A stretch of DNA of 43,966 bases from an uncultured Bacteroidales bacterium (GTDB lineage Bacteria; Bacteroidota; Bacteroidia; Bacteroidales; UBA4417), in contig CALCJE010000148.1 of the NCBI GenBank assembly GCA_937965665.1, positions 1 through 43,966 on the forward strand, in the 5' to 3' direction. Under the pieces are notes generated by a model that was not told the DNA's origin, did no database searches, and saw nothing but the letters and a program-made list of their open reading frames with translations. Below, piece by piece: positions 4,479 to 43,223 of this stretch; position 1 is the stretch's first letter, and the number at the start of each line of letters is the position of its first letter. The position numbers were made by a program, and so were the translations under genes.

Positions 4479-4546
4479 TATCCTTGACTTCCTGAATTTC
4501 CTTAAAATCCTCATTCATCTAATTCCCGCCAATATGCTTTTTTGAT

Positions 4547-4645
4547 AGTAATTTTTGACAGTAATCTCTGATTTTGTCTAAAATTACTATTGGCTAATTC
4601 AAGATGTTCGCTTACATTTGTCTGTAGTGAACAAATGTGTAGAAC
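4547..4645. promoter_or_regulatory. Two long imperfect palindromes in the intergenic region upstream of the pAgo gene (terminator of the backbone operon and/or operator)
   Basis: AGTAATTTTTGACA (4547-4560) pairs with TGTCTAAAATTACT (4575-4588) with 1 mismatch. GTTCGCTTACATTTGT (4606-4621) pairs imperfectly with ACAAATGTGTAGAAC (4631-4645). Confidence 0.4.
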
Positions 4646-4755
4646 CCCTTTTCTTTCAATACACACGCTTTATCTACTGATATAATTTTTCATTCAAAGA
4701 AGACAATGCCAAACATCTAGCTTCAATATTTTGATAACAATTAAAATAGCTTTTT

Positions 4756-6825
4756 ATGCCAGATCAAAATCTATTTTTCAACATACTCACTTTCGATTGG
4801 CCAAAGGAGAAACTTATATTTTATTTCAGCAAAAACGACGACAGGTCTTCTTCACGTATCCATAAATCTAATTTCCCAATTGACATATCTTCAATATTCC
4901 CTGATATTTATTCAGAGAATATTGAATTTGTTTATACCACATTCACCTATAAAAAAGCTGGTTTCATCCCCTTAGAAATTGATGCCCGTAATGAAAATCC
5001 GGATCTGATTAAACAGTATTACAACCGGGAGATTAATTATTACTTCAGGAAGGTTATTAAGTTAATAGTAAAAAGAGGTTTTATCGGTGAGAATCAGATT
5101 TGGACATACTCCAAAAAGGTGACTAATAGCACTTATCATTTTTATGAAAGATTTTCCTTCAAGGTTCAGCTCTGTACAGTTAGTCAATTCCCCGAACTGC
5201 TTATTTCTTACGATGGTAGATCAAGGGTTTTAAAATCTCCGGTTTCTCAGCTTGTTAAGTCAGTCTCTCAATCAACATTTATTAACGTTGTTTACAAAGG
5301 AAGAGTCCTCAATTTCGAAGATCTGGTCAATGAGATTGATCTTGATTATTCAAAAGCATATCCAATTCTTAATACAAAGCTTGAAAACGCATTAGGTGTC
5401 GAAGCAGAACCGATTCCAAAAAGCAATCGTTACATATCATATTTCGGAAAAGTTGATGAAATGCGAAAATACTTGCATTCAAAATCTGATTTCAAAAAGT
5501 TAATACCTCTGAACGATGTAAATTTTTATTCAGTTCCGGAAGATTTGATTTCTAAAATAAATGATGAGAGTAACAATTTAGCATTCCATGAAAAAGAAAT
5601 AGGCAGAACCCCCAAAATAGACTTCCGAAAACTAAAGCCATTTAAAAAATGTCCGCATCAGAATGTTCACCTTTTCTTCATTTATCATGAAAATGATGAG
5701 GCTACTAAAGATAAGCTTCAAGATTATTTCGAAAATGGTACATCCTTTTATAGAGGATTAACGGAATATGCTGGGATACTTTTCCACACCGACAAATCAT
5801 CTTCAATTTCATTCAGTGATAAGTTAAACCCGATTCCTGAGATTAGCCAGGGAATTGAACGACTCGATTTAAGTAATCCCGAAATCAAATACCTGGCAAT
5901 TTATCTTACCCCTTATACTAAAGCAGAAACAAGCAAGCAAGAGGTCCGCATTTATATAAAAGTGAAAGAAATGCTCTTGAATCGTGGTATTGCTTCTCAA
6001 TTCGTAGAACCGGCCAACGTGAATGGAGAAAAAGAAAACGATTTTGTATTCAGCCTTACTAATATGTCAGTCGCTATTCTTGCCAAACTTGATGGCATAC
6101 CCTGGCAACTTGGTTCTGATTTTAAAAATGAATTAATTATTGGGATTGGTGCATTTAGGCATTACGCTGATCAGGTTCAATATGTAAGCAGTGCAATCAG
6201 TTTCGATAATACAGGCCGCTTTCACCAATTTGAATACTTCATGAAACATCAAGTGGATGTTTTGGCTGGTTCCATTGCAACAAAAGTTCGTGAGTTTACT
6301 GCAAGCGTCAAACCACCGGATAGAATTATCATTCACTTTTATAAACAGCTAAGTGAAAAAGAACTTGCTCCGATCGAAAAGGCTTTGTTGGAATTAAAAC
6401 TTCCTAATCCTGTACCTATCTTCATAGTCACAATCAATAAAACAGAAGCTAAAGATATTTTTGTTTACGATGCTTCCTGGAAGCATCTTATGCCTATAAG
6501 CGGTACTTATATCAGTATTGGTAATAAGAAATATGTATTGTGCAACAACGCCCGTTACAACAATTTCTACAACCCTAAAGATGGTTTCCCTTTTCCGGTT
6601 AAACTTTCAATTGATTGCACCGAACCTCAACTACTCGAAAATGATGAAACAATAAATGAACTGATCAATCAGGTTTATCAATTTAGTCGTTTGTACTTTA
6701 AGAGTGTCATGCAACAAAATTTGCCTGTCACCATCAAATACCCGGAAATGATCGCAGAAATAGTCCCTTACTTTGAAGTAAATGGAATACCTCCGCAAAG
6801 TAAAAGTAACCTCTGGTTCTTATAA
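4756..6825 (+). CDS. Prokaryotic Argonaute (pAgo): N/L1/reduced-PAZ/L2/MID/PIWI layout, catalytically inactive PIWI (long-B-like)
   Basis: PIWI signature AILAKLDGIPWQL (GIPWQL at 6094-6111) is followed by LIIGIGAF, where Gly (6148-6150) sits where active Agos have the first catalytic Asp (GxDV). The RDG-equivalent segment reads IIIHFYKQ (6325-6348), with no Asp. MID-like Y-x-K...Q pattern in RIYIKVKEMLLNRGIASQF (about 5941-6003). Hydrophobic C-terminus ...NLWFL as in Ago proteins. Only about 60 aa is available for a PAZ-equivalent. Confidence 0.8.
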   Translation: MPDQNLFFNILTFDWPKEKLIFYFSKNDDRSSSRIHKSNFPIDISSIFPDIYSENIEFVYTTFTYKKAGFIPLEIDARNENPDLIKQYYNREINYYFRKVIKLIVKRGFIGENQIWTYSKKVTNSTYHFYERFSFKVQLCTVSQFPELLISYDGRSRVLKSPVSQLVKSVSQSTFINVVYKGRVLNFEDLVNEIDLDYSKAYPILNTKLENALGVEAEPIPKSNRYISYFGKVDEMRKYLHSKSDFKKLIPLNDVNFYSVPEDLISKINDESNNLAFHEKEIGRTPKIDFRKLKPFKKCPHQNVHLFFIYHENDEATKDKLQDYFENGTSFYRGLTEYAGILFHTDKSSSISFSDKLNPIPEISQGIERLDLSNPEIKYLAIYLTPYTKAETSKQEVRIYIKVKEMLLNRGIASQFVEPANVNGEKENDFVFSLTNMSVAILAKLDGIPWQLGSDFKNELIIGIGAFRHYADQVQYVSSAISFDNTGRFHQFEYFMKHQVDVLAGSIATKVREFTASVKPPDRIIIHFYKQLSEKELAPIEKALLELKLPNPVPIFIVTINKTEAKDIFVYDASWKHLMPISGTYISIGNKKYVLCNNARYNNFYNPKDGFPFPVKLSIDCTEPQLLENDETINELINQVYQFSRLYFKSVMQQNLPVTIKYPEMIAEIVPYFEVNGIPPQSKSNLWFL

Positions 6826-6852
6826 TCTTCACATCTTTTAAACCCGGGTATT

Positions 6853-7347
6853 ATGTGCGCTCAATGGAATAACAAAGACGTTCCGCACAAAGGCTGGATT
6901 TTAGTCGATGTGATCGATGTAAGAGAGGATGGCCAGCCAGCTGATGAAACGGATTACGAAAAATGCATGATGTGCGGTAACGAGAAAATTCGATACGTGC
7001 ATATTGTTGAACATAAGGATTTGGATGGTGAATACCGCGTCGGTTGCATTTGCGCCGAAAAAATGACGGAAGATTACATTAATCCCAGGGAACGCGAAAA
7101 AGAACTAAAACGCAAAAGTAATGAGCGTATCAGTTGGGTTAAGAAAAAATGGAAAACTTCTAAGTCTGGCAATATATTTCTAAATATTGATGGAAACAAT
7201 TTAGTCGTTTATAATGATAAGATCACTGGTAAATACAAATGCAAACTAAACGACAAATTCGGCTCTATTACCTACAATGATCTTAGTGCCGCCAAAATCG
7301 GCCTTTTCAAAAAGATGGAAGAGTTAAAGCAAAAGGGGAAATGGTAG
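6853..7347 (+). CDS. Uncharacterised four-Cys zinc-ribbon protein, co-operonic with the pAgo
   Basis: 28-nt gap after the pAgo stop, same strand. CMMCGNEKIRYVHIVEHKDLDGEYRVGCICAEKM gives a CxxC...CxC arrangement. It is followed by a Lys/Arg/Glu-rich helix (REREKELKRKSNERISWVKKKWK) and a small C-terminal domain. No family recognised. Confidence 0.7.
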   Translation: MCAQWNNKDVPHKGWILVDVIDVREDGQPADETDYEKCMMCGNEKIRYVHIVEHKDLDGEYRVGCICAEKMTEDYINPREREKELKRKSNERISWVKKKWKTSKSGNIFLNIDGNNLVVYNDKITGKYKCKLNDKFGSITYNDLSAAKIGLFKKMEELKQKGKW

Positions 7348-7382
7348 AAATATCCTATTTATGACTAAGGTTTAAAAAGTAA

Positions 7383-10300
7383 TTACGCTCCCTCCACAAT
7401 CCCTATTTCCTCCTCCGTCAACCCATACAACTCATACACCATCCGGTCTATTTCCTTATCCGTTTTATCGATTTCAGATTTTAATTCCAAGACAATTTGC
7501 TTTTGCTCGTTAAAATAATGCATCCATTCGACTTCAGAAGATAGACTCAGTTGTACTCTAGCCTTTTTAAGTTCGTTTAAAAAATCTTTAAAATCTAGCT
7601 CATCCCAATTTAAAATATTATTGCTTGGCTTTTCAATATCAAATTTATTCCGAAATAAATTTGTGAAATCTGATATTATAGTTTGCGATTGATTAGTCTG
7701 AGTAACTATTTTTTGAACTTTTTGTATAACTTTCTCAATTATTTCTTTCGAAGCTAGTTTGATTGGAAGTTTTCTTATATCACCTATAAGTATCTTAGGA
7801 AATGTTGTTCGATTACCTTTTGGAGATGTCTTTAAATTGAACCATGAAATCAGTTTAGAATTAATAATTGCTAAAAGATATTCACTTCCGATTTCGGTAA
7901 TATTTAAACAAGAAATTATACCAGGATCATGGTATAAAGTGCCATCATAAATTGTTGCTGTTATTCTGGGTGGATGCCCACCAGTTATTTCTTGTATCAA
8001 GATTCTTTTCCCATTAAAATATTTGGATTTTCTTGGCCGGTGTAACCACTCTCCATATTTTAAATACTCATGAACTGAAATATCAATACCATAACGATTA
8101 AGCGATCTTCCTTGAATCCAAATTCCCCATTCGTCACTAATTTTTGTATCATTATGATAAATTCTACTTTTAACCTGATCCTTTGAAAGATTTTCTGTTG
8201 AATAAGGAACGATTCCTTGGCATACATCTAAAAATGATGAGCCCAACTCTGCATTTGTAGATATTTTAGAAATGATAGAAATATCAATTTCATTCTGCCA
8301 GACTTGAAATTGCTTGTCATTCGACTTTGTCCAATTTGCTATCAAAGCTTCTTCAGCATCTATAGATTCTATTGAAAGTTCTTTACTCTTTGTATCAATG
8401 TGCAATATTTTACATTTTTCGACAAAAGCATTCTTCCCTAAAATGAATAATATTGGATTAACGCTTGCATCATCAAAAACTGAATGTTCAAAAGTTACAA
8501 TAGTGTTAATACCATAATTACTAAGAACATGTTCTCTTAATTTTTGCGCTTGAGGAATATTTATCCATGTATCAGGTGTTATATAGCCTGCTTTACCCTT
8601 ATGCTTAGCTAAAACATTTAACAGCTCAATAAAGAAAAAGTATATCTCAAAGTTGCCTTGAAATGTACTCATATGACTTTGATAATATTCTTTTGAAAGT
8701 GCATCTAAATATGCACCGTACGGCGGATTCCCAATTACCACATCAAATCCCCCTTTTTCAAATACAGTTGGAAATTCAGCCTGCCAGTTAAATGCTTTAT
8801 CACCTGCCACAGCCGGATCGTCAATCAGCGAGTTGCCGCACTTGATATTGTTGTTTAAATCGTTCAGCTTGCGGTTAGGTTGGGCAGTACGCAACCAAAG
8901 GGAGAGTTTGGCTATCTCAACACTCTCCTCATTTAAATCAACTCCAAACAGGTTGTTTTCGAGTATATTCTTTTCAAAATCGCTCAGCACCAAAGCATCG
9001 CCAAAAAGCTTGGCCTGTAATTCGTCGATATAGCGGTGCTCGTTTATCAGGAAGTCGAGCGCCTGGTTAAGGAAAGCTCCCGAGCCGCAGGCCGGGTCGC
9101 AAATGGTAAGTTGCAAAAGCCAGTCGCGGTATGCGGTAAGTTTTTCAAATAAAGGCTGAATGGTTTTCTTTGTACGTTTCCGGTCGGTGATATACTCTTC
9201 CTCAATCAGTCCGATTTTTGCTTTTTTCTCCATGCAGAGCTTGCCAACGGTGTTATCAACAATATACTTTGTAATGTATTTCGGAGTATAAAAAACACCA
9301 TCCTTTTTACGCTTGCTTTTCGATTTGTCAACCTGCTGCCCTTCGAGCTGCGCTTTTATTTCATCCAGTTCGTTCAGAGAGTTTTCGAAAATATGGCCCA
9401 GGATATTCACATCCACTTCGCTGGCAAAGTCATACTCCGAAAGCTTCAGCGTATGCCTGTATAGTAGTTCATCATCAATTTTTAGCCCATCCAGCAGTTC
9501 ATCCGTTTTAAACAACCCACCGTTATACGCGAATACATCGTATCGTTTCCCTTTAAAGCCGGTATTGAGATATTCAAAATACTTTTTAAACCTGGCATAC
9601 AGGGCTATTTCCACATCTCTGTTTAACAACTCGCGCCAATCGTCCAGTATAAGTCTCACCGAATTAGGTGGTAGCAATTGCCTATCCTCTGCAAAAAAGA
9701 GAAACAGGAACCGGTCCAGCAGCTTTTGCGATTTTTTAAAGAGCGTCAACGGGTCATGATCCGGATTGAGTATAACCAGGTTCTGATGCAGTTCCCTTTT
9801 AAACAGCGAATAATCGTTATACAGGTTTTTCGTAATTACGTCTTCCTGGCTTACCGATTCATCTTTTATTCGCTTTGCAAGATTTTTCTCAATATTTACA
9901 AATGCCAGGCATAACCACAGCAGTTCAAACTCTTTCTCACTAAGCGTAAACAGGTTGAACTCAATATTCTCAATGGCGTTATCAATATAAAAACGCAGCT
10001 TCTCAAAATTGGAAGTGATCACATACACACATTCCGGCTGGTTGTTCTTATAGCCGAAAGCCTGGGCTTCAATACGGTTTAAGTCGGTGGTTTCAGTTCC
10101 TTTGAGTTCTATAACCGCCTTTACCACACCATTGATCAGTATGGCTCCATCGGCTTTTTTACTGTCCTTTACATTTTTGTATTCGGTAGTAATATTGAAA
10201 TTTGGTGCCGGGTTCTTGGTATAGCCCAGCACATTAACAAACAGATCGATCAGGAACTCGCCCTGGTATTGTTCTTCCTTGCTGTTGCGAATGTTTTCCT

Positions 10301-10412
10301 GCACCTCAGGATCATGAAAACGAGCTACGAATTTGGCGTATGCAGTTTTTATAGCAGCGGAATCCTGCGTTTTTAGGTGTTTATTAAGAACTGAATTTTG
10401 AAAGAATTTCAT
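7383..10412 (-). CDS. Type IIG (single-chain) restriction endonuclease / N6-adenine DNA methyltransferase with C-terminal specificity region
   Basis: N-terminal PD-(D/E)xK-like motif ADGAI...AVIELKG (D at 10149-10151, ELK at 10101-10109). SAM motif I DPACGSGAF (9072-9098). Catalytic motif IV NPPYG (8715-8729). The 1009-aa size and layout match MmeI/Eco57I-like enzymes. Confidence 0.8.
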   Translation of the reverse strand: MKFFQNSVLNKHLKTQDSAAIKTAYAKFVARFHDPEVQENIRNSKEEQYQGEFLIDLFVNVLGYTKNPAPNFNITTEYKNVKDSKKADGAILINGVVKAVIELKGTETTDLNRIEAQAFGYKNNQPECVYVITSNFEKLRFYIDNAIENIEFNLFTLSEKEFELLWLCLAFVNIEKNLAKRIKDESVSQEDVITKNLYNDYSLFKRELHQNLVILNPDHDPLTLFKKSQKLLDRFLFLFFAEDRQLLPPNSVRLILDDWRELLNRDVEIALYARFKKYFEYLNTGFKGKRYDVFAYNGGLFKTDELLDGLKIDDELLYRHTLKLSEYDFASEVDVNILGHIFENSLNELDEIKAQLEGQQVDKSKSKRKKDGVFYTPKYITKYIVDNTVGKLCMEKKAKIGLIEEEYITDRKRTKKTIQPLFEKLTAYRDWLLQLTICDPACGSGAFLNQALDFLINEHRYIDELQAKLFGDALVLSDFEKNILENNLFGVDLNEESVEIAKLSLWLRTAQPNRKLNDLNNNIKCGNSLIDDPAVAGDKAFNWQAEFPTVFEKGGFDVVIGNPPYGAYLDALSKEYYQSHMSTFQGNFEIYFFFIELLNVLAKHKGKAGYITPDTWINIPQAQKLREHVLSNYGINTIVTFEHSVFDDASVNPILFILGKNAFVEKCKILHIDTKSKELSIESIDAEEALIANWTKSNDKQFQVWQNEIDISIISKISTNAELGSSFLDVCQGIVPYSTENLSKDQVKSRIYHNDTKISDEWGIWIQGRSLNRYGIDISVHEYLKYGEWLHRPRKSKYFNGKRILIQEITGGHPPRITATIYDGTLYHDPGIISCLNITEIGSEYLLAIINSKLISWFNLKTSPKGNRTTFPKILIGDIRKLPIKLASKEIIEKVIQKVQKIVTQTNQSQTIISDFTNLFRNKFDIEKPSNNILNWDELDFKDFLNELKKARVQLSLSSEVEWMHYFNEQKQIVLELKSEIDKTDKEIDRMVYELYGLTEEEIGIVEGA

Positions 10413-31098: not shown

Positions 31099-31494
31099 CT
31101 AATGTTCTTTATTCACTTTGGTTTGTAAAGCATCGCAATAAATTATCATATTTTCACCCTCTCCAAAAGGTGTTGATTTGTAGGCGTCCGCTTGCCAGTC
31201 ATTCTCCCAATGCCAATTATCAACGAAGTACCTGAATTGATAGTCTTTGCCTAATGGAAGCTCTACCGTTTTTTCGAAGAAACCATTTTTAGACTTTATC
31301 ATTTTATCTTTACGCGGATTCCAATTATTAAAATCACCCAGCAAAGCCACTTCTTTGGGATGGTCTATAAGAGTATCTGTTACACTGAATTTTATTCGGC
31401 AAATCCCTTTCTCAGGTATAATTTCCTTTTGTATACACATTATTTCTATTTTTTTTGTGACACCTTTTCTATTACGCTTGAATATTTCTTGCAA
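31099..31494 (-). CDS. CBM48 / AMPK-beta-like glycogen-binding (early-set) domain protein
   Basis: VALLGDFNNWNP...GFFEKTVELPLGKDYQFRYFVDNWHWEND matches the isoamylase-N/AMPK-beta carbohydrate-binding pattern. Confidence 0.7.
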   Translation of the reverse strand: MQEIFKRNRKGVTKKIEIMCIQKEIIPEKGICRIKFSVTDTLIDHPKEVALLGDFNNWNPRKDKMIKSKNGFFEKTVELPLGKDYQFRYFVDNWHWENDWQADAYKSTPFGEGENMIIYCDALQTKVNKEH

Positions 31495-31520
31495 AAAGTT
31501 TTTTTTGATCCAGAAGGTAT

Positions 31521-31880
31521 TCAGTCTACTTTATCCTCTTTACAATTTATTACTGAATTATACACCTCTTCATATGGTGTTTTTACCAGCCCATCGGCTT
31601 CCCATTCATTTTCCCATATGTATTTATCAATCAGATATCTGAACTCGTATACCTTACCGATGGGTAGATCTATTTTTGCTGTAAAAATGTCTTTATTATT
31701 TTTATGCATCATGTTTTTGCCTGGTTGCCACATATTAAAATCCCCAACAATTGCCACGCTCTTTGGATGATCGGCTATTGATTCAGGCAACCTGAACGCA
31801 ACACTGCAAATACCTTTTTGGGGTACAAATTTTTTAATGATGCTCATAGCAACGTCCTTCCTGTTTGAAATTAAAATCAC
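31521..31880 (-). CDS. CBM48 / AMPK-beta-like glycogen-binding domain protein (tandem paralogue)
   Basis: VAIVGDFNMWQP...IFTAKIDLPIGKVYEFRYLIDKYIWENE is the same pattern as the neighbouring gene. Confidence 0.7.
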   Translation of the reverse strand: MILISNRKDVAMSIIKKFVPQKGICSVAFRLPESIADHPKSVAIVGDFNMWQPGKNMMHKNNKDIFTAKIDLPIGKVYEFRYLIDKYIWENEWEADGLVKTPYEEVYNSVINCKEDKVD

Positions 31881-32007
31881 TTACTCCTTACTTCTGAAAA
31901 ATAAACTTGCTATTTTTTCTGAATTAGAAAGAATCATTTGTTGAAGCCAGACTATTATTGCCACATTGCATAGTCTTTTAAATATTTTCAGGCTTAAACT
32001 ATATTCC

Positions 32008-32307
32008 TTACAATTGCTTGCACCTTTCCAGTTTATTATTTTGCCATTTGATGGGCTCAATTGAGTCATCAAGCCAAATTTCCGCTTTTTCATAATTTGG
32101 CATCATTTTCTTTTGCCACTCCTTTATGATATTTCCTTCGGAATTTGTTTGTATGTCTTTCTGGACGACATTATACCTGGTATTTGCCTTGTTTGTCGTT
32201 ACCTTATGTAATTGCTGCTCTAAAGTTGTCATAATTTCATGATTTTGAAGGTTCATTAATTCATAATCACAACCACTATTTCTTCTTCTCAAAAAGGTAA
32301 GCATCAT
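32008..32307 (-). CDS. Hypothetical protein (99 aa)
   Basis: ORF downstream of the small peptide ORF. No motif recognised. Confidence 0.4.
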   Translation of the reverse strand: MMLTFLRRRNSGCDYELMNLQNHEIMTTLEQQLHKVTTNKANTRYNVVQKDIQTNSEGNIIKEWQKKMMPNYEKAEIWLDDSIEPIKWQNNKLERCKQL

Positions 32308-32320
32308 TGTCGGATAATCT

Positions 32321-32425
32321 TTATTGCAGTATGCCGGCCAGTGTATGAGTAATTAAATAAGAGTAAATTGCAAACATTAGTCCTGGATAGCTTGCATAGG
32401 TATTGTACGCATATTCAATACACAT
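32321..32425 (-). CDS. 34-aa aromatic/hydrophobic small peptide (MCIEYAYNTYASYPGLMFAIYSYLITHTLAGILQ)
   Basis: My own translation. Preceded by AGAGGAGAATTA on the minus strand. First ORF downstream of promoter module copy 3. Confidence 0.35.
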   Translation of the reverse strand: MCIEYAYNTYASYPGLMFAIYSYLITHTLAGILQ

Positions 32426-32450
32426 TAATTCTCCTCTAATGTAAGTTATG

Positions 32451-32519
32451 CAAAGTTACTGGCGAATCCGCCCTCACTAATTAAAAAATGATTAGAATCT
32501 AATTATATCTTCATTAGCA
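32451..32519 (-). promoter_or_regulatory. Promoter module copy 3: -7 box plus four 11-bp-phased repeats
   Basis: Plus strand CAAAGTTA (32451-32458) is minus TAACTTTG. The repeats ATTAAAA / ATTAGAA / ATTATAT / ATTAGCA start at 32480, 32491, 32502 and 32513. Confidence 0.55.
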
Positions 32520-32599
32520 AATGGCCTCTGATATTTCATATTCTTATTTCTATTCCTTTTGGAGCATCTAATTTTCTATTATAATGGTAGTTGTGTTTT

Positions 32600-33540
32600 G
32601 ATATATTCCGCCACTCCCGCACGCAGGCTATGCCGGTTGCCTACATGCGCTTTTTCCTGTCATGGTATTTGCAGAAAATAGCAAATACACCGTGGCACGC
32701 CAGGAAAAAAGCGCACTCCACCACCGGAAGCTTGCATTTACATAATGTGCGCTTATGGGCTGGGTAGAAGCCCATAAGCACATTATGCAAAGCAGCCACA
32801 GCCTGCTTACCTTCCCACTCCACCCACTTCCTATGTTGCTGCAAGCAATTGTCCTCAGCCGCCTTGTGTCTGCCTCCTTGTTTCGTCACCTTTCAGGCAG
32901 GCAGGTTCGTACTTTTCGGACACCTGCTATCACACCAGCTTTGTAACGGTGTCCGCAAAGTACACGCACTAAAGCAAAGCCTCCTTCGTCGGCTCAGCTT
33001 TTTAAACGTGCTTCACCAGCCAGCCTTCAAGGATGCCATCACTGCGTCAGCATTCACCGTCGTCTTCAGCCAATCACTTTCGCAACCCCACAGCAGCACA
33101 CTTGTATGTCAGCCAGCATTATTGCCTGCACACCTTTTTTCGGCTCCCCGGCCACCTTCTCTCACACCACCTTTGTTACGGTGTCCGGCAAGCACGAAAA
33201 TCCACGTTACATAATGCCGTCAGCCATCCAAGCAAGCTGCTAAAGGCCTGCCCACTTACAGCTATCCAAGCATTTTAGCCGGTTCTTAGCCAAAGTCTAC
33301 AAGTTAGTTCTACAAGTGACGAGTACTGTTCACAAGCAATCAGAGTTACAAGCGGTATTTGTATGCGCCATCGCCCTCCGGTTGGTCGTTAGGGCGCAAG
33401 CCACAGGCGTGCGGTTGAAAAGTTTCTTAGGAGTGCTGCCGCACTCCGTAAAGCGGTATTTTGTGTTTTATTTCTCCGGCCCCAGCAGCATTTATTCGTT
33501 CCTCATTTATGCTGCCCCGGTCATCTGCTATTAGGTAGCT
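32600..33540. other. About 1-kb GC-rich, strongly C-over-G-skewed (plus strand), ORF-poor, hairpin-dense block of unknown nature (candidate large structured RNA or ssDNA-active element)
   Basis: Hairpins: 32647-32714 (13-bp outer stem GCGCTTTTTCCTG/CAGGAAAAAAGCGC plus an 8-bp inner stem); 32741-32787 (10+8 bp); 32917-32955 (CGGACACC/GGTGTCCG); 33148-33188 (a related copy); 33372-33396; 33430-33447 (GGAGTGC-tgcc-GCACTCC). C:G counts are 22:11 in 32821-32880 and 22:9 in 33061-33120. The predicted ORFs here have non-protein-like sequences. Confidence 0.5.
33296..33352 (+). repeat. Cluster of four (T/C)ACAAG motifs, including a TCTACAAGT direct repeat (iteron-like)
   Basis: TCTACAAGT at 33296-33304 and 33309-33317. 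CACAAGC at 33331-33337. TACAAGC at 33347-33353. Confidence 0.45.
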
Positions 33541-33645
33541 TATTCATCCTTTCATATTCTTGTTGCCTTCTTAGGTTACTTACAATAAGCACTGCTGATC
33601 GTAGCTTACTATCTTTTTATTGGTGCCCATAAGAGGGAATTTTTT

Positions 33646-33922
33646 AGGAAAAGAAAAACAGCAAAGAAAAAAAAGAAAGCGAATGTAAAGTAGCATTCCG
33701 GCTTATTCAAGGCGCGAAAAATGAAATCAATTTTTTCGCCTCAAATAAAGCTATACTTCATTTTTCTGTGCTTCACGGATTTTTTTTTGCATAACCTGGT
33801 CGGAAGTTCCAATCAGGTTTTTTTATGCAAAAATAAATCCGCTCCGGCCTTGATTAAGCCTCCATGCTTCATTGCTCAATGGCTTCCTTTTTTTTCTTTT
33901 TGCCGTTTTTCATTTTTTTCCT
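33646..33922. repeat. AT-rich ~277-bp unit bounded by imperfect homopurine/homopyrimidine inverted repeats and containing two near-perfect hairpins
   Basis: Left arm AGGAAAAGAAAAACAGCAAAGAAAAAAAAGAAAGC (33646-33680) versus right arm 33881-33922, whose reverse complement is AGGAAAAAAATGAAAAACGGCAAAAAGAAAAAAAAGGAAGCC. Inner hairpins at 33711-33740 and 33784-33833 (TTTTTGCATAA/TTATGCAAAAA plus CCTG/CAGG). Confidence 0.5.
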
Positions 33923-33992
33923 AAAAAATTTGTGGAAGGGGTGCTAAAGGGAAGATCAGGAGAAGTTCCAAAAAACTCACCTAAAGCCCCCA

Positions 33993-34427
33993 ATGATGCT
34001 CAAGATCACCACCTATTCGCCAGATCAAGCCCGCACCTCATTTGCCTTTTTCATCCTGAATAAGGGCATAAATAGCGGTAAACCAATGGAGCGACCCTGC
34101 CCAAATTGTTTCACTTTTCACGCCTCTACCCAGGAAGAAAAGGATCTGTATTACTGGCTCTGTTTCGGGATGTGGAAAGCTCACACTTTCCATCCCTACC
34201 TAAGAGGCTCATTAATTCCTTTCATCATCAAATCCGACCTGGTCCAGCTGATCAAGGAATCATCATCCAAAGCCCTGGAAGCACCCGGCCAATTTGAAAA
34301 GGCCGTTGAAGCCTTCAAAATCCTGGAACGCCAGGAGCAGCAGTTCCACCGTAACCTCCTGTTAGTCTCAGAAGCAAAAAAGGCAATCTTCGCCAATTAC
34401 CACTCACTTCCATCTTTCTACAGATAA
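33993..34427 (+). CDS. Hypothetical protein (144 aa)
   Basis: The ORF has protein-like composition. First gene to the right of the structured region. No family recognised. Confidence 0.45.
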   Translation: MMLKITTYSPDQARTSFAFFILNKGINSGKPMERPCPNCFTFHASTQEEKDLYYWLCFGMWKAHTFHPYLRGSLIPFIIKSDLVQLIKESSSKALEAPGQFEKAVEAFKILERQEQQFHRNLLLVSEAKKAIFANYHSLPSFYR

Positions 34428-34448: not shown

Positions 34449-34682
34449 ATGACACAAAAAACTTCAACAATTTCAAAGGAGACAGCCGAAAAACACGGCT
34501 ATTACCTATTCGGTGGCAAAGGTGATGTTTGGTCCAACACTGCTCATTTGTCCCATGGCGGAATGCCAACAACATTGTGTGGCCGACCGATGCTCAGCAC
34601 AAACTGGGTGCGTATTAACGAAATTCAGGAAGTCGGATGCACTGAATGTGCCAGGCTTTTTGATCTTGCAATTTCACTTTAA
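34449..34682 (+). CDS. Small Cys/His-containing hypothetical protein (77 aa)
   Basis: TLCGRP...VGCTECARLF suggests a metal-binding knuckle. A hairpin follows the gene. Confidence 0.45.
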   Translation: MTQKTSTISKETAEKHGYYLFGGKGDVWSNTAHLSHGGMPTTLCGRPMLSTNWVRINEIQEVGCTECARLFDLAISL

Positions 34683-34690
34683 TTAACCAG

Positions 34691-34716
34691 GTTCCCGGGC
34701 TTCATCACTCGGGAAC
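34691..34716 (+). terminator. Hairpin after the 77-aa gene (weak intrinsic terminator)
   Basis: GTTCCCG (34691-34697) pairs with CGGGAAC (34710-34716). The downstream T-run is short and interrupted. Confidence 0.35.
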
Positions 34717-34732
34717 TACAATTTTAAAAGCC

Positions 34733-34981
34733 ATGACACAATCCGAAATTATCAACAGGACCTTCCGGTTCATTTACAACATCCCTTCAAACTTCATCGA
34801 AGATATTTGGTTTGACACTCCATGTCTGAAAGAACACCTCAAAGCCAAGTTCACCGGCTTCTGCAAATCCGAAGGATATGCTTCAGCCAATGCCATACTA
34901 AAATTCGTTTCCGCCCTGGATGAATCCAACACAGAAAAATTCTGCTCCTATGCTTCCTTCTGGATGCAAAACCACAGATAA
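34733..34981 (+). CDS. Hypothetical protein (82 aa)
   Basis: ORF only. Confidence 0.4.
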   Translation: MTQSEIINRTFRFIYNIPSNFIEDIWFDTPCLKEHLKAKFTGFCKSEGYASANAILKFVSALDESNTEKFCSYASFWMQNHR

Positions 34982-35046
34982 TCCGTATTCGCCCGTAAAA
35001 TACGGCTCACAATTTTCAAATTCTCAAATCTTCAAATTCCAATCCC

Positions 35047-35268
35047 ATGAAAAAGTATTTCAACGATCCCCGCCCCATTACTGTAAGGTATCAGGGCACT
35101 TGTGCCGAGTGTGGCAAAACTCTAAAGAAAGGCACTGAAGCCTATTACTGGCCTACTGATGGCAAAATTTACTGCATTTCCTGCGGTGAATCTGAGTATC
35201 GGCAATTCCTCTCAGCTGCAGCCGACGAAGCTGTTTACCTGGGCATCGGTAATCCCTTCGCATGTTAA
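35047..35268 (+). CDS. Small zinc-ribbon protein (73 aa)
   Basis: CAECGKTL...YCISCGESEY gives CxxC-N19-CxxC. Confidence 0.5.
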   Translation: MKKYFNDPRPITVRYQGTCAECGKTLKKGTEAYYWPTDGKIYCISCGESEYRQFLSAAADEAVYLGIGNPFAC

Positions 35269-35315: not shown

Positions 35316-35495
35316 ATTATATTTCTGAGGAATAACTGTTTAAGAAACAAGTAAATCAAATTAAATTCCATTTATTATTACATTTACTTGATGAAAATAA
35401 AGTCGGAAAAATGTTGTTTGCTATAAAGTCTGTAATAAATGCCAATTGATGACTAATTGTAATTGAAAATTGAATAGAATTAAGAAAAAGAAATT

Positions 35496-36497
35496 ATGGC
35501 AAATCAAATACCCATTGACAAACTTAGAGATAGAGGAGGTTATGTTGATATAGGCACAAAAGAGGATGGAGCTATTGTTGAAATGTTTGACATTGATGGA
35601 GTGCTAATAATAATCAAAGAAAAAGCTCTATACGAATTAAGATATGCAGATGATATTGATCCTGGGAGGGTAAATCCTAACCTGCCACCTAATGTTCAGA
35701 GATTATTATTAAAACTTGGCTCTGAATCAGAGTTACTTTCAAGGACTTTTATTACAGCTAAAAAATTATTTAGGAAAGAATCTCTAGTTGAATCGTTTAA
35801 TATCAATTCAGCTTTACGATTTTCTTTAGAAGCAGCAACAGAATTAGCGACTATGGAATCTGAAATTAATAATTATTTAGCAGATGAAAAGAAAGTTTGT
35901 GAAGAATATGAGACAAATAGATCAAAAGAAGTTTTTTATACAATTCCTTCAATTACTGATGTTACCACTAGGTGTAAAACAATTTTTCAGAAAGCAGATC
36001 ATGTGATGCAAGCTTTAATGGACATCATAAAATTATTTTATAATGATTTGGGTAAAAGCCCTTATTATTCAGATTTTATCAATTTTATTGAAAAGAAGTA
36101 TGGTAATTCAGATCCATTTTATGAGTACCTTAAAAAGATTTTTTTTATTATCGAAATGATTCGTAACATACGCAATTGTCTTGATCATAGGCGATCTGAG
36201 ATATTAATAAAAGATTTTGAAATACAATTAGATGGTAATGTTCTCACTCCCACTATTGAAATTGAGTATTTAAATTCAAAACTTGACAGAATTTCACTAG
36301 AATCTTTTCTTCCTATTATATTACAGAATCTTATTACCATTTTTGAGAATATGTTGGTGGGACTTTGTAACAAAAACTTGGCACAGACTCCTTTTACGGT
36401 GAAAGTTGTATTTGTTCCACCAGAAAAAAGAAAGAACAAATTTGTTCAATATGGATATTGGAGTGCATTAGGTCCAGGAGGCTTTTTCCAACAATAA
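35496..36497 (+). CDS. Candidate HEPN-domain protein (Abi-like RNase toxin/defence effector) with an uncharacterised N-terminal domain
   Basis: IRNIRNCLDHRRSE contains an R-N-x-x-x-H (Rx4H) motif at 36171-36188 in a predicted helical C-terminal half. The gene is noticeably more AT-rich than its neighbours and stands alone behind a terminator. Confidence 0.5.
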   Translation: MANQIPIDKLRDRGGYVDIGTKEDGAIVEMFDIDGVLIIIKEKALYELRYADDIDPGRVNPNLPPNVQRLLLKLGSESELLSRTFITAKKLFRKESLVESFNINSALRFSLEAATELATMESEINNYLADEKKVCEEYETNRSKEVFYTIPSITDVTTRCKTIFQKADHVMQALMDIIKLFYNDLGKSPYYSDFINFIEKKYGNSDPFYEYLKKIFFIIEMIRNIRNCLDHRRSEILIKDFEIQLDGNVLTPTIEIEYLNSKLDRISLESFLPIILQNLITIFENMLVGLCNKNLAQTPFTVKVVFVPPEKRKNKFVQYGYWSALGPGGFFQQ

Positions 36498-36739
36498 CTT
36501 CCGATTAAATTTTTTAAGTCTGGTTTCCATAGGGCTTTATTTTTCTAAAGTGCAAATAAGTGCAACAAACAGCATAGCACTACATAACATATTGTATAAC
36601 TGTATGTTATAGTATTATTTCTTATATTCCACCGTACCTTTGTACAGAAGTCGGGAAGATATAGATTCCGTATCAATTCCATACCAAGTCCGTATCAAGG
36701 CCGCTTTTCTTTAATTATTCATCTAAATACTTCTGCCCA

Positions 36740-37411
36740 ATGGCAATCGTACAAAATCCCATCACTGGCAGGACCTGCAAGAAATTCGGGACCGCCGTTT
36801 TCTCGAAACACTACGAGAACAACACCATGAGAAGCCGCCCCATCCAGGTAGCTAATCCAAGAACCGAAGGCCAGGTATTGCAGAGGAGCAAATTTGCTCA
36901 GACTGTTGACCTGATCCGACAGGTACTCCCCGTTGTTAATGATGCGTATTCTAATACGCTCAAAAACATGTCCCCTTTCAACAAGATCGTTAGCTTGAAC
37001 GTTAAGAACATTTTTACTGAAGGCACGAACGAAATTGATTATACCAAAGTTCAGTTCTGCGACAATGCCGGCAGCAATGTCCGCAATGTTGAATTGACTT
37101 GTGAAGATGACCAGGTAATTAGCTTTATCTGGGAACCAAACACAATCAATCAGGCTGAGCTTGATGAACCAGTTTCGATTATCCTGGTTAACTGCATCAA
37201 GAACAAAGCAATCAACTACCCGGCAGTTGCTTTGAGGTCGGAAAGTGCAGCCAGCGTAATTGCACCTGTTGAATGGGTTGGCGATATGGTTGCCGCTTAC
37301 TTCAACACGACTGATTACACTACCTCGAACCCTAAAGCTGATGGATCTATTCCTAAAAAGAAAGTGATCAGCTTTAAAGCCGGAGCAGATCTTACTAAGA
37401 ATGTAAAATAA
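36740..37411 (+). CDS. Hypothetical protein (223 aa); the N-terminal pattern resembles a conserved Bacteroidota uncharacterised family (possibly DUF6266-like)
   Basis: ITGRTCKKFGTAVFSKHYENNTMRSRPIQVANPRTEGQVLQRSKFAQ. A terminator-like hairpin follows. The overlapping antisense ORF 36719-37420 looks like a shadow ORF. Confidence 0.5.
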   Translation: MAIVQNPITGRTCKKFGTAVFSKHYENNTMRSRPIQVANPRTEGQVLQRSKFAQTVDLIRQVLPVVNDAYSNTLKNMSPFNKIVSLNVKNIFTEGTNEIDYTKVQFCDNAGSNVRNVELTCEDDQVISFIWEPNTINQAELDEPVSIILVNCIKNKAINYPAVALRSESAASVIAPVEWVGDMVAAYFNTTDYTTSNPKADGSIPKKKVISFKAGADLTKNVK

Positions 37412-37618: not shown

Positions 37619-37630
37619 TTTGATTTTCAG

Positions 37631-37704
37631 TGACCCCGCCAGGATTCAAACCTGGAACCTTCTGATCCGTAGTCAGATACTCTATTCAGTTGAGCTACGG
37701 GGCC
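37631..37704 (-). tRNA. tRNA-Arg (anticodon ACG)
   Basis: The minus strand GGCCCCGTAGCTCAACTGAATAGAGTATCTGACTACGGATCAGAAGGTTCCAGGTTTGAATCCTGGCGGGGTCA folds by hand into a 74-nt cloverleaf. It has a 7-bp acceptor stem (one G-U pair), D stem GCTC/GAGT, anticodon stem TCTGA/TCAGA with loop CTACGGA, and T arm CCAGG-TTTGAAT-CCTGG. CCA is not encoded. Confidence 0.95.
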
Positions 37705-41045: not shown

Positions 41046-42938
41046 TTATTTAGTAATTAACAGGCTTATGATGAAGGAACGACCCTGCTCAGGGTAATAC
41101 TGTATCGACTGATACTCGGTATTGAGCACATTATGAATCTCCGCCTGAAGGCGAAAACTTGTTTTCCTGCTTTTTAAAATTGTGCCGGCATATACATCGA
41201 ACAACGAGTAGGCTGGTAACGACGATGAATTATCACTTTGCACATATCGTTTCCCTGTCATCGAAAAGGAAAAGAGACTGTAACAGGCGTTTCGGGCAAA
41301 GTAAAATGTCTCCTGTATTTTGTGCAATGGAATATATATCACTTGCTTATCCACAATATCAGCCTGGCCGGATGCGGCTTCCATGTACGTGGATGGAGTA
41401 TAATTATACCCGAAGCGGAAATATCCATTAAACCCGGCATATTTCCAGTCGGATCGGGATGATATTTCCATACCCCGGCTCCACACTTTCTGCTCATTCT
41501 GCGGCGACCAGAGTCCTGCATTGCCAGGTACCCATTGAATCATATTTTCAATCATCAGGCTATACAGGTCAACATTGATTTTGGAACTGAAAACCCCGCC
41601 TGTATGTAACTTAAATTCAGCCCCGGTTTCAATATTCCAGCTGCTTTCGGGCTTCAAATCAGGATTTCCGCCAGGAATCCAGTATTTGTCATTCATAGTT
41701 GGAACACGAAAATTGCGGGATGTGCTGAAGTTTATTGCAACATTTTTGGAAACAGGGAAATGGGTACTGAATGAAGGGCAAAACGGAACCTGGTACCCTT
41801 TCGAAAAATCCTGTCTCAGGTTTAAAACACCAGTAATTCCCTGATTTAGCGCAGAAAAACTGAATGCTGCCCAGACCGATCCCTCGGGCTGGTATTGAAT
41901 TCCGTTATAATTTGCAACTTCCCCTTTGATAATATGTGCCGTAGTTCCGCTGCCAAGTGTAAACCGTTTGCCCAGGTAGCGTTTATACTCAAAATCGGCC
42001 TGTAACGTATTGATGTGATAAAAGGCATCAATATTTGCGGTTTCGCTCTGGTAATGCTCCTTTTCATCGATAAACGCCGAACGAACTATAAATGATTGAT
42101 GCATACCGGTATAAGACCATTGCAGCATGCTCCGGATTGCCTGGTCCCATTGCTGCTGGTCGCTGCTGGACATGGTCATGGTGGGTGGGATCTGCCTGTC
42201 AGTTACCTGGTACCATACCGCGGCCTTCAACTTCTGGTGTTGGTTAATCAGGTATTCGAGCTCGTGAACCGAAGAAGCAGATTTAACAAGAGAATTATCA
42301 ATTGTTACCCTGTTACCATAAAAATCGGTATACTTGAAATTGTTGTTATTCCATGTACCGGAAAGTGATCCCGCATAAGCGAGGTGCTTACTGCCAGCGG
42401 AGAGTTTCAAACCACCATTTGCGTTTCCGAAACTGCCGGCACTCATCAAGGCAGAAACCCGCACAGGAGTTAAATAATGCATTTTGTTGGATAGTTGCAG
42501 GCTTCCGCCGATTACACCGGAACCCAGTAATGCACTTGCACCACCCGACTGAATTACAATATCTGAAAATTCGAAGGTTGAAATACGCGACAGATCAGTC
42601 ATTGCCATATTGGGCTGCTGCAGGTTGATGCCATTCCAGAAGACACCCGATTGGGATGAATTAGTTCCCCGCATCGACAAAGTTGAAGTACCGCTTGGCC
42701 CATTCGATTTAAGGATTATAGGGGTTTGTTCGTTCAGTAACATAGCCAGGCTGGCGCCCTGTCGGATAGAAAGCGTGGTGGTGTCAATTTTTTCAATTTT
42801 AATGCCTGTCGCAAAAGCCGAAATCCTGTCGGCCTTGATCTCAACTGCACCCAATAGCCGAGTGGAATCCGCAACCTGTGCCGAAATTTTCAGTACAACG
42901 CATAAAAAAAGTGAAAAGAAAGCAACCCGAAGTTTCAT
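41046..42938 (-). CDS. btuB: TonB-dependent outer-membrane receptor, cobalamin-type (BtuB-like)
   Basis: Signal peptide MKLRVAFFSLFLCVVLKISAQ (start at 42938 preferred over 42983). Plug-domain motifs (LSMRGTNSSQSGVFWNGINL). The leader contains a cobalamin riboswitch. Confidence 0.8.
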   Translation of the reverse strand: MKLRVAFFSLFLCVVLKISAQVADSTRLLGAVEIKADRISAFATGIKIEKIDTTTLSIRQGASLAMLLNEQTPIILKSNGPSGTSTLSMRGTNSSQSGVFWNGINLQQPNMAMTDLSRISTFEFSDIVIQSGGASALLGSGVIGGSLQLSNKMHYLTPVRVSALMSAGSFGNANGGLKLSAGSKHLAYAGSLSGTWNNNNFKYTDFYGNRVTIDNSLVKSASSVHELEYLINQHQKLKAAVWYQVTDRQIPPTMTMSSSDQQQWDQAIRSMLQWSYTGMHQSFIVRSAFIDEKEHYQSETANIDAFYHINTLQADFEYKRYLGKRFTLGSGTTAHIIKGEVANYNGIQYQPEGSVWAAFSFSALNQGITGVLNLRQDFSKGYQVPFCPSFSTHFPVSKNVAINFSTSRNFRVPTMNDKYWIPGGNPDLKPESSWNIETGAEFKLHTGGVFSSKINVDLYSLMIENMIQWVPGNAGLWSPQNEQKVWSRGMEISSRSDWKYAGFNGYFRFGYNYTPSTYMEAASGQADIVDKQVIYIPLHKIQETFYFARNACYSLFSFSMTGKRYVQSDNSSSLPAYSLFDVYAGTILKSRKTSFRLQAEIHNVLNTEYQSIQYYPEQGRSFIISLLITK

Positions 42939-43029
42939 AATGGTTATTAAAATCCGGGTAAACATGTGAGCATTACCTGCCATTGACAGACCCTGCCGCT
43001 GCTTTTAACCCGAAAGCATTGAACAAAAC

Positions 43030-43215
43030 ACATAGGCAGGTCTTCTGACTTTCTCCCCCTTCCCGGCGCCTTCCCATAACAAATTAAAGTTACAGTGGCA
43101 AAAGGATTGCCGGTGGGTTCATTCGGAGATTACAGCAGCGGGACTGTCCGGGATTTGCACCCGATTCCCTTTTAAGGCATTCCCATTGCAAATGGGATGC
43201 ACACCGTTGATGGGA
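43030..43215 (-). promoter_or_regulatory. Cobalamin (B12) riboswitch
   Basis: The minus strand reads ...AAAAGGGAATCGGGTGCAAATCCCGGACAGTCCCGCTGCTGTAATC...TTTTGCCACTGTAAC...ATGGGAAGGCGCC...AGTCAGAAGACCTGCC. It contains the B12-box core GCCACTG (plus-strand CAGTGGC at 43093-43099) and the other conserved blocks in the canonical order. Confidence 0.9.
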
Positions 43216-43223
43216 CAAAGGTA
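43216..43223 (-). promoter_or_regulatory. Candidate -7 box (TACCTTTG) driving the riboswitch/btuB operon
   Basis: Plus strand CAAAGGTA is minus TACCTTTG, matching TAnnTTTG, just upstream of the riboswitch. Confidence 0.45.

Follow-up and report, generated by a model that had tools for sequence, protein, structure and literature searches.

A putative kilobase-sized structured RNA gene paired with DUF6943 operons in Bacteroidota

Bacteria have few known classes of large RNA that combine an elaborate fold with no assigned function, and each of these ornate classes (OLE, GOLLD, ROOL, HEARO and raiA) has opened new biology, which has included RNA-guided nucleases, membrane ribonucleoproteins and RNA cages. 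To our knowledge, none of them is typical of the phylum Bacteroidota, which dominates communities in the gut and the sea. ROOL and GOLLD RNAs often lie next to tRNA genes and come mainly from Bacillota and from lake and rumen samples, a provenance that differs from the one considered here. The present analysis concerns a window of 43,966 nucleotides (positions 1-43,966 of contig CALCJE010000148.1, from an uncultured Bacteroidales bacterium, assembly GCA_937965665.1), in which positions 32612-33525 of the minus strand are probably the gene for a new multi-domain structured noncoding RNA (ncRNA) of about 0.9 kb, or up to 1.2 kb in relatives. The gene would be divergent from an operon that begins with a DUF6943 gene and ends with a DUF6266 gene.

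Among published accounts of comparable RNAs are the paper describing ROOL (PMC5737381) and a cryo-electron microscopy paper on GOLLD, ROOL and OLE (PMC12286853). According to two further papers (PMC9723947, PMC10898510), OLE is a large ornate RNA that is linked to small partner-protein genes and works as a ribonucleoprotein. Paper searches did not find the present region described, and two intergenic-RNA preprints from 2026 cover UG27 arrays and a ribosomal-protein leader. The region shares the attributes that informally unite OLE, GOLLD, ROOL, HEARO and raiA, namely a length above about 500 nt, lack of coding capacity, many covarying helices and invariant unpaired blocks, and the putative RNA is accordingly filed as a new family within this known kind. 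The reasons for reading it as a new RNA are its conservation, a covarying fold along its length, a strand bias, the lack of a coding signal, the lack of an Rfam match and its synteny.

Limits, fold and strand of the putative RNA gene

A sequence-only reading of the window had singled out 32600-33540 as an abrupt GC-rich, C-skewed stretch in AT-rich DNA. Computed profiles bear out this switch in composition: GC content is 0.505-0.535 in windows across 32600-33300, compared with 0.295-0.355 in the left flank (32000-32600) and 0.34-0.37 in the right flank (33500-33900), and the plus-strand GC skew is -0.25 to -0.36 across 32700-33300. The proposed limits need some adjustment, in that the conserved structured stretch is 32612-33525 and a second structured element, itself AT-rich, resides at 33625-33992.

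Relatives were collected by scanning a DUF6943 alignment against one genome per species, which yielded 404 confirmed loci, 80 of which were fetched. About 25 of these 80 share noncoding DNA upstream of DUF6943 at 68-93% identity by blastn. They come from Bacteroidales and Lentimicrobiaceae assemblies, five of them being diverged copies on a single Lentimicrobiaceae-type chromosome, and the homologous region is always upstream of the DUF6943 gene and in the opposite orientation. In blastn comparisons and alignments, homology sets in at 32612-32624 in every homologous locus, with a sharp edge near 32617, and the DNA to the left of about 32617 differs in every locus. Along the blastn profile, no homologue covers 32600, but more than 15 loci do so by 32620; 17-22 loci remain aligned as far as 33415, 4 over 33420-33600, and coverage recovers at 33620-33980. 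The less conserved stretches of this profile correspond to hairpin units in which pairing is kept by covariation. The 3′ end of the RNA would fall at about 32612-32617, where homology to all relatives stops, and its 5′ end at or above about 33523, giving a gene of 914 nt in the window and 0.9-1.2 kb among relatives. We infer transcription and both ends indirectly, because no minus-strand promoter or terminator motif was identified. The gene and its predicted parts are as follows.

32612-33525, minus strand: putative large structured RNA gene, 914 nt, recognized from homologue coverage, alignments, covarying helices, strand tests, folding z-score and noncoding character
32617-32810, minus strand: 3′ domain, a three-way junction closed by helix 32623-32632/32797-32806 and followed by a conserved G-rich tail (GCGUGGGUNGG)
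32645-32716, minus strand: hairpin A, with helices 32645-32664/32696-32716 (19 pairs, 13 covarying) and 32665-32672/32681-32688 (8 pairs, 1 covarying)
32733-32794, minus strand: hairpin B, helix 32733-32762/32768-32794 (26 pairs, 8 covarying), with the motif ACAUAAUGU...ACAUUAUGU, found in 45 of the 80 loci
32834-33090, minus strand: long-range helix 32834-32858/33064-33090 (19 pairs, 5 covarying; G.U 72 vs A.C 0)
32889-32906/33015-33032, within 32834-33090, minus strand: enclosed helix (14 pairs, 3 covarying)
32908-32964, inside the long-range helix, minus strand: hairpin unit 1, with stem CGGACACC/GGUGUCCG and a conserved loop (GUAACAAAG..GGUGUGA)
32971-33001, within 32834-33090, minus strand: enclosed hairpin (11 pairs, 5 covarying)
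33091-33242, minus strand: central domain, helix 33091-33125/33209-33242 (30 pairs, 11 covarying) around hairpin unit 2
33137-33156/33180-33200, minus strand: hairpin unit 2, the second copy of the repeated unit (18 pairs, 11 covarying)
33360-33405, minus strand: GCGCY...RGCGC hairpin, covarying, with a nearly invariant interior (AACGAYCAACCGGAGGGCGAU)
33483-33517, minus strand: 5′ hairpin P1, GGGGCAGCAU...AUGCUGCU (19 pairs, 8 covarying)

The region-wide consensus fold contains more than 20 conserved helices, where the sequence-only reading had counted at least six stem-loops, and covarying helices extend from 32623 to 33517, some of them spanning 150-250 nt. For the 3′ domain, the structure was predicted with RNAalifold from a MAFFT alignment of 19 copies. 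Its 65 pairs are standard-paired in 98.2% of cells, and 25 of them carry changes on both sides, a number reached in none of 500 column shuffles (11.5 +/- 1.7 double-change pairs); controls in which the partners were slid by 1-3 columns gave 2-5 such pairs. Hairpin A, whose apical loop UUUUUUCU is conserved, corresponds to a previously noticed 68-nt double-stem hairpin and was recovered as an inverted repeat. Hairpin B had been seen as an 18-bp hairpin; it is present, as a longer helix than that, and is the most widely conserved piece of the RNA, being kept in the Chitinophagaceae and Flavobacteriales matches described below.

A near-palindromic stem, ACATAATG...CATTATGT (32737-32791 in the window), recurs in 45 of the 80 loci at varying distances from DUF6943. 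In one lineage it lies within the RNA, whereas a 149-nt hairpin at -540 to -392 is built from it in another (for example, at 5398-5546 of locus L071). The stem could be either a motif of the RNA or a site bound by protein.

Further toward the 5′ end, the central domain shows double changes in 17 of 51 pairs. The hairpin unit reported earlier as repeated is indeed so, the two 47-nt copies (32917-32963 and 33149-33195) being 83% identical and 232 nt apart. A tandem array of modules of about 232 nt was considered and rejected, as only the 47-nt hairpin unit is repeated in the window copy. In P1, UAAAU is conserved on both sides of an internal loop, and double changes occur at four pairs in 3-4 sequences, with variants that include GCAGUAU/AUACUGC, GCAGCAU/AUGCUGC and GAUUGCAU/AUGCAAU among relatives. 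Invariant blocks include UGAAGGCUGGCUGGUGAAGC and UGCUGCUGUGGGGUUGCGAAAG. Other parts of the fold vary: the position of hairpin unit 1 carries a different hairpin in some relatives, and both an expansion segment of about 290 nt next to 32833 and an apical extension of P1 are present in most relatives and absent from the window copy. Overall, the size variation of the relatives consists of whole hairpins.

The folded molecule has the sequence of the minus strand, the G-rich one, which the sequence-only reading had proposed as the structured strand. This assignment follows from wobble pairs that are one-sided and from two further measures that agree with them. In the 3′ domain, 54 alignment cells are G.U when read on the minus strand and 1 when read on the plus strand. 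Such a count may be skewed by the choice of strand for the structure prediction, and a strand-neutral stack-extension test was therefore added, in which folding was restricted to Watson-Crick pairs and the column pairs stacked on the resulting helices were then examined. It gave 9 minus-only versus 2 plus-only column pairs, with G.U 114 against A.C 10. The Watson-Crick-only folding by itself gave 18 versus 8 and is too conservative to inform on the strand. The consensus-fold energy is -418 for the minus and -348 for the plus strand. For the window copy (32612-33535), the minimum free energy is -358.6 kcal/mol on the minus strand (z = -7.8 relative to dinucleotide shuffles) and -286.8 on the plus strand (z = -5.7), and no shuffle was as good on either strand.

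No protein-coding signature accompanies this fold. The earlier description of the stretch as free of open reading frames (ORFs) holds in that respect and fails in the literal one, as the C-rich strand contains mechanical ORFs as long as 121 aa (up to 121-148 codons); these open frames are explained by how little G+A the strand contains. Across the three codon phases, variability is 0.172/0.184/0.171 in the structured region and 0.079/0.085/0.255 in the adjacent DUF6943 gene, and 362 of 432 indels in the structured region are not multiples of three. A conserved intact ORF, which the sequence-only reading had named as the mark of a pseudogene, was found in none of the approximately 25 homologues aligned. 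A decayed protein gene, also among the earlier suggestions, was rejected because 3-base periodicity is absent and most indels would break the frame.

Comparison with known RNA families, among them ROOL, GOLLD, OLE, HEARO, raiA, group I and II introns, RNase P, tmRNA and 6S, gave no assignment. At gathering thresholds, Rfam 15 recognizes only a cobalamin riboswitch and a tRNA in the whole window, and only a tRNA in 12 related loci. A permissive scan of 32300-34000 at E <= 10 produced chance-level matches to eukaryotic miRNA, snoRNA and lncRNA models and to one Bacillus sRNA model, the best of which scores 27.5 bits against a cutoff of 71 and lies outside the RNA.

Relatives and breadth across Bacteroidota

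A 21-mer from the conserved core of the RNA retrieved 21 further metagenome contigs, at least 17 of which hold the full 3′ domain. A covariance model of this domain (R1) finds it in 23 close loci and at least 17 metagenome contigs, and gives weaker matches in other classes. The weaker matches (E 1e-8 to 5e-3) occur in Chitinophagaceae, Flavobacteriales and other lineages, are centred on the ACAUAAUGU hairpin, and all reside on the minus strand 0.7-2 kb upstream of DUF6943. This weaker signal, together with the same composition signature, is seen upstream of DUF6943 in Flavobacteriia, Cytophagia and Chitinophagia. In the 49 loci with both flanks, the most C-skewed 400-nt upstream window has a skew of -0.358 and a GC content of 0.482, compared with -0.226 and 0.370 in the downstream control, a difference with p ~1e-8 among loci that are not all independent.

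A second lineage of the RNA comprises locus L071 (4216-5145) and eleven relatives from Cytophagales, Flavobacteriales and Chitinophagales. Since these copies are 75-97% identical across three orders, they evidently spread by transfer. Their consensus fold (12 loci) has an energy of -441 on the minus strand and -369 on the plus strand and contains 27 pairs with double changes; in the stack-extension test, 5 pairs are minus-only and 1 is plus-only. Given that the second lineage folds likewise and that model matches and the skew signature recur across classes, the association of DUF6943 with a large predicted fold on the minus strand characterizes the phylum, as judged from sequence comparison. 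Cultured carriers among the DUF6943 loci include Tenacibaculum haliotis KCTC 52419, Winogradskyella arenosi CECT 7958, Gynurincola endophyticus, Marivirga atlantica SM1354 and Algoriphagus sp. CAU 1675.

Five 12-kb DUF6943 loci, L037-L041 (assigned to Kriegella, Phaeodactylibacter, a Flavobacteriales metagenome-assembled genome, Mesoflavibacter and Aquimarina), have identical match statistics and hit coordinates. Either a metal-resistance element moved horizontally among them very recently or the assemblies are cross-contaminated.

The divergent operon, its leader and the surrounding DNA

To the right of the RNA gene, beyond a short spacer, is the plus-strand operon with which it is inherited as a cassette of about 4 kb. 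The features of this side of the locus, and those of a mobile/defence cluster that lies about 22 kb to the left of the RNA (2664-10412), are listed here.

33526-33624: AT-rich, poorly conserved spacer between the two divergent units
33625-33992, plus strand: AT-rich structured element with inverted-repeat arms 33638-33713/33847-33930 and no Rfam match
33765-33779 and 33797-33819, plus strand: terminator-like stems followed by T runs, inside the inverted-repeat arms, the former also found in the terminator scan
33993-34427, plus strand: DUF6943 protein, 144 aa (Pfam PF22105, E = 2e-44), the constant neighbour of the RNA
34449-35268, plus strand: three small ORFs of 77, 82 and 73 aa, with protein clusters of 12, 26 and 30+19 loci
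35496-36497, plus strand: ORF of 333 aa in an AT-rich insert (GC 0.27-0.36), specific to the window, in a variable slot after the zinc-ribbon gene
36740-37411, plus strand: DUF6266 protein, 223 aa (Pfam PF19781), the last gene of the cassette
37630-37704, minus strand: tRNA-Arg(ACG), with its 3′ end toward the cassette, from which 220 nt separate it
2664-4478: DUF3987/PriCT_2 primase-helicase of the mobile/defence cluster
4756-6825: Piwi-domain prokaryotic Argonaute of the same cluster; in 15 related loci an Argonaute is directly beside the RNA gene
7383-10412, minus strand: Eco57I/MmeI-type restriction-methylase of the same cluster

The spacer presumably contains the promoters of both units. 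On the plus strand, 33610-33617 (TATCTTTT) aligns with an exact TAnnTTTG in seven relatives. The AT-rich element downstream of it is distinct from the RNA gene and is probably a structured plus-strand leader, or attenuator, that contains a terminator and precedes the DUF6943 operon. This reading is drawn from a GNRA-loop hairpin with a T run behind it, which 10 relatives have about 180 nt ahead of the start codon, a UNCG-type hairpin (a cUUCGg/UCCG loop, with a plus-strand G.U in the alignment), the terminator-like site and the TAnnTTTG at 33610. The arms of the element covary (GGCTTA/TAAGCC versus AGCAAA/TTTGCT), and its wobble pairs show no strand bias (G.T 28 versus A.C 22). With such a long leader, the operon would presumably be expressed in response to some signal.

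Database comparisons say little about the proteins of the cassette: Pfam yields only DUF names, PHROGs, PADLOC and NCBIfam give nothing useful, and a literature search found no paper that mentions DUF6943 or DUF6266. The AlphaFold2 model of the DUF6943 protein (pLDDT, a per-residue confidence score, of 82) predicts short strands followed by long helices, with no significant neighbour in the PDB and a type I S-subunit only at E = 3. The predicted structure of the DUF6266 protein, which is encoded downstream of DUF6943 in 43 of the 80 loci, has a disordered but conserved N-terminal arm, helices and an FN3-like sandwich, with generic fold matches only. The three small ORFs are conserved in the Lentimicrobiaceae-type cassette, and that of 73 aa encodes a four-cysteine zinc-ribbon protein. 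Homology to relatives skips 35319-36550, and the 333-aa ORF within this interval matches no family in Pfam, PHROGs, PADLOC or NCBIfam. Other loci hold different genes in this slot, for example a PD-(D/E)XK nuclease or a Fib_succ_major protein.

The cassette is kept in place over species-level divergence, as judged from two groups of loci that come from different assemblies and share right flanks: L005, L006, L008, L012 and L074 share one (tRNA-Asp and an AddB-like gene), and the window, L003, L007, L019, L026 and L028 share another. In L012, the conserved unit measures about 3.8 kb and is situated between housekeeping genes (Rrf2, cytochrome oxidase) and the tRNA-Asp and AddB-like genes. A tRNA gene on the same side and in the same orientation is present in 16 of 60 loci scanned, with Arg, Asp, Asn, Val, Lys, Thr and Ser all represented. 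In L003 (8140-8230), only the 3′ half of a tRNA-Asn gene resides beside the cassette; it is identical to that half of the intact tRNA-Asn gene in L007 and resembles a scar left by integration or excision.

At the opposite boundary, variable cargo begins exactly at the 3′ end of the RNA. It includes housekeeping genes (ferrochelatase, sugar kinase), defence genes (GmrSD, prokaryotic Argonaute in 15 loci, AbiJ-AAA with HNH) and metal-related genes (efflux genes, MerT/ArsR genes). No integrase was found beside the RNA boundary in the loci examined, and the cassette and the examined flanks (12-kb loci) contain no relaxase, Rep, mobilization or conjugation gene. An integrative element with att repeats was rejected as a carrier, since a search of the window and of 15 loci for another copy of the tRNA 3′ end found none. 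The location between a tRNA gene and variable cargo suggests a role tied to accessory or mobile DNA.

Phage and plasmid collections were searched as well. Among 50,697 phage records there is no blastn match to the region and no tblastn match to DUF6943; IMG/VR has no match for DUF6943 or the repeated hairpin motif, and a plasmid collection has no blastn match to the region. Three loci (L015, L017 and L025) have a Terminase_3 gene on the opposite strand, about 2.7-3.6 kb to the right of DUF6943, that is 37-46% identical to terminases of temperate siphophages of Parabacteroides and Bacteroides. Those phages lack DUF6943, and a prophage carrier was rejected on the grounds that the terminase belongs to a neighbouring prophage type without DUF6943 and that DUF6943 is absent from phage records and IMG/VR. 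On a Chondrinema litorale plasmid (L081, NZ_CP111060.1), a 94-aa protein encoded at 6004-6288 resembles the N-terminal half of DUF6943; its gene sits between parA/parB and a BfmA/BtgA mobilization gene, and no GC-rich structured region accompanies it.

Elsewhere in the window, tandem minus-strand ORFs of 131 and 119 aa (31099-31880) have weak AMPK1_CBM/CBM48 glycogen-binding matches and occupy AT-rich DNA common to no related locus. The cobalamin riboswitch (95.8 bits) resides at 43018-43223 on the minus strand, upstream of a TonB-dependent receptor gene (41046-42983).

Alternative readings and known systems

Several points weigh against a new RNA gene. One-sided wobble pairs show which strand folds, and not whether the folded molecule is RNA or single-stranded DNA (ssDNA). 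Neither a conserved minus-strand promoter of the Bacteroidota type (TAnnTTTG) nor an intrinsic terminator was found for it, and a scan for sigma-70 promoters and terminators of the minus-strand RNA stayed at chance level, its single sigma-70-like match falling below shuffle expectation. Some of the long-range helices, such as 33407-33421/32809-32823, lack covariation. The aligned loci are often related copies, whether paralogues or orthologues, and so the counts of compensatory changes overstate the number of independent events. Finally, since the partner proteins give no functional clue, it is from synteny that the idea of a ribonucleoprotein derives.

The sequence-only reading had offered, besides a large structured ncRNA of the kind found in mobile elements, a set of hairpins that act in ssDNA, and this is the main rival, if an unlikely one. 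The minus strand would become single-stranded in conjugative or rolling-circle transfer, and its fold would supply single-strand promoters or priming sites (Frpo, ssi) for early expression of the rightward genes in a new host. The geometry suits such a promoter, as the strand that folds also serves as template for the DUF6943 operon, and hairpins of DNA likewise tolerate G.T wobble pairs. Elsewhere in Bacteroidota, moreover, the module is found within highly similar, evidently transferred DNA with defence and metal-resistance cargo, and the distant DUF6943-like gene of the Chondrinema plasmid adjoins a mobilization gene. That plasmid locus, however, lacks such a region, and the cassette keeps the same chromosomal position in several genomes, with no relaxase, Rep or conjugation gene in the 12-kb loci examined. 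The pairing is retained in the five diverged copies of a single chromosome. Single-strand promoters known to us are single hairpins of about 0.3 kb, whereas the fold here approaches 1 kb, with multi-way junctions, helices that span 150-250 nt (several of them covarying) and invariant unpaired blocks. The size and branching of the fold, the maintenance of the cassette at chromosomal positions without transfer genes nearby and hairpin arms devoid of a conserved TAnnTTTG motif thus make activity in ssDNA the less likely reading.

The remaining explanations have much less to recommend them. A feature of double-stranded DNA, be it protein-binding inverted repeats, iterons or the replication origin of an integrated element, seems very unlikely: the near-palindromic stem recurring at differing positions in many loci and the unbiased inverted repeat next door would fit it, but a duplex site has no reason to tolerate G.T pairs on one strand (54 versus 1; 114 versus 10), and the compensatory changes across more than 20 helices keep pairing rather than sequence. 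A reading as an extended untranslated segment, leader or trailer, of some neighbouring mRNA is highly improbable. The minus-strand ORF at 32008-32307 does lie downstream and points the same way, yet every relative has DNA of its own to the left of about 32617, and hence there is no conserved downstream gene, while the sole conserved neighbour is on the other strand. Almost no credence attaches to a decayed foreign protein gene, which would account for a composition foreign to the flanks and for the long mechanical ORFs of the C-rich strand, because those frames reflect low G+A content and the roughly 25 homologues show neither codon periodicity, nor frame-preserving indels, nor a conserved intact ORF. 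A large structured ncRNA therefore remains the favoured member of the original possibilities, in view of covariation, minus-strand wobble pairs and synteny near tRNA genes and variable cargo.

If the region is such an RNA gene, its product would be a stable transcript that serves as scaffold or partner for the co-inherited small proteins, by analogy with OLE and its Oap proteins. A wider proposal, held with middling confidence, is that this ornate RNA class of about 1 kb is widespread in Bacteroidota and is co-inherited with the DUF6943, zinc-ribbon and DUF6266 operon as a multi-copy, tRNA-adjacent cassette. It might form an RNA-protein particle or an RNA-only assembly with a function in mobile or accessory DNA, and its 3′ end may dock defence and resistance cargo as tRNA and tmRNA genes do. 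A kilobase RNA with strong covariation, its own protein operon and cultured carriers is directly testable; if borne out, it would provide a first context for two families of domains of unknown function, DUF6943 and DUF6266. Its fixed place, with a tRNA gene on one side and variable cargo for defence or metal resistance on the other, may shed light on the organization of accessory islands in the phylum.

Comparison with described systems places the putative RNA nearest to the ornate classes, ROOL and GOLLD above all. With Frpo and ssi elements it shares a strand-specific fold on the template strand, upstream of small genes of the same direction in mobile-looking DNA; unlike them, it is far larger, multi-branched and chromosomally maintained, with no oriT or relaxase in the nearby DNA examined and no promoter motif in its arms. 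HEARO, or omega, RNAs of IscB and TnpB and the bridge RNAs of IS110 likewise have a structured-RNA end that forms a sharp homology boundary. They differ from the present RNA in that it is three to five times longer, has no adjacent nuclease or recombinase gene and has no Rfam match. A further parallel, by analogy only, is with the tRNA and tmRNA genes that anchor islands, in that island-like variable DNA starts at the 3′ end of a structured-RNA gene, although here no integrase resides at the boundary and no direct repeat of the RNA 3′ end was found.

OLE offers the precedent of a large RNA genetically linked to small-protein genes. There is no sequence or structure match between the two RNAs, and the Oap proteins are unrelated to DUF6943 and DUF6266. 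OLE is, moreover, a single-copy chromosomal gene of Gram-positive anaerobes and extremophiles, whereas the cassette is multi-copy, tRNA-adjacent and bordered by variable cargo. From ROOL and GOLLD the putative RNA is set apart by the absence of a family match even at E <= 10, by DNA that is not borne by phages or prophages and by a dedicated, divergently transcribed protein operon. It resembles them in its adjacency to tRNA genes and its accessory or mobile DNA setting, in a size class of 0.6-1 kb, in many helices with variable expansion hairpins, in a G+C content above that of the host DNA and in having no known function.

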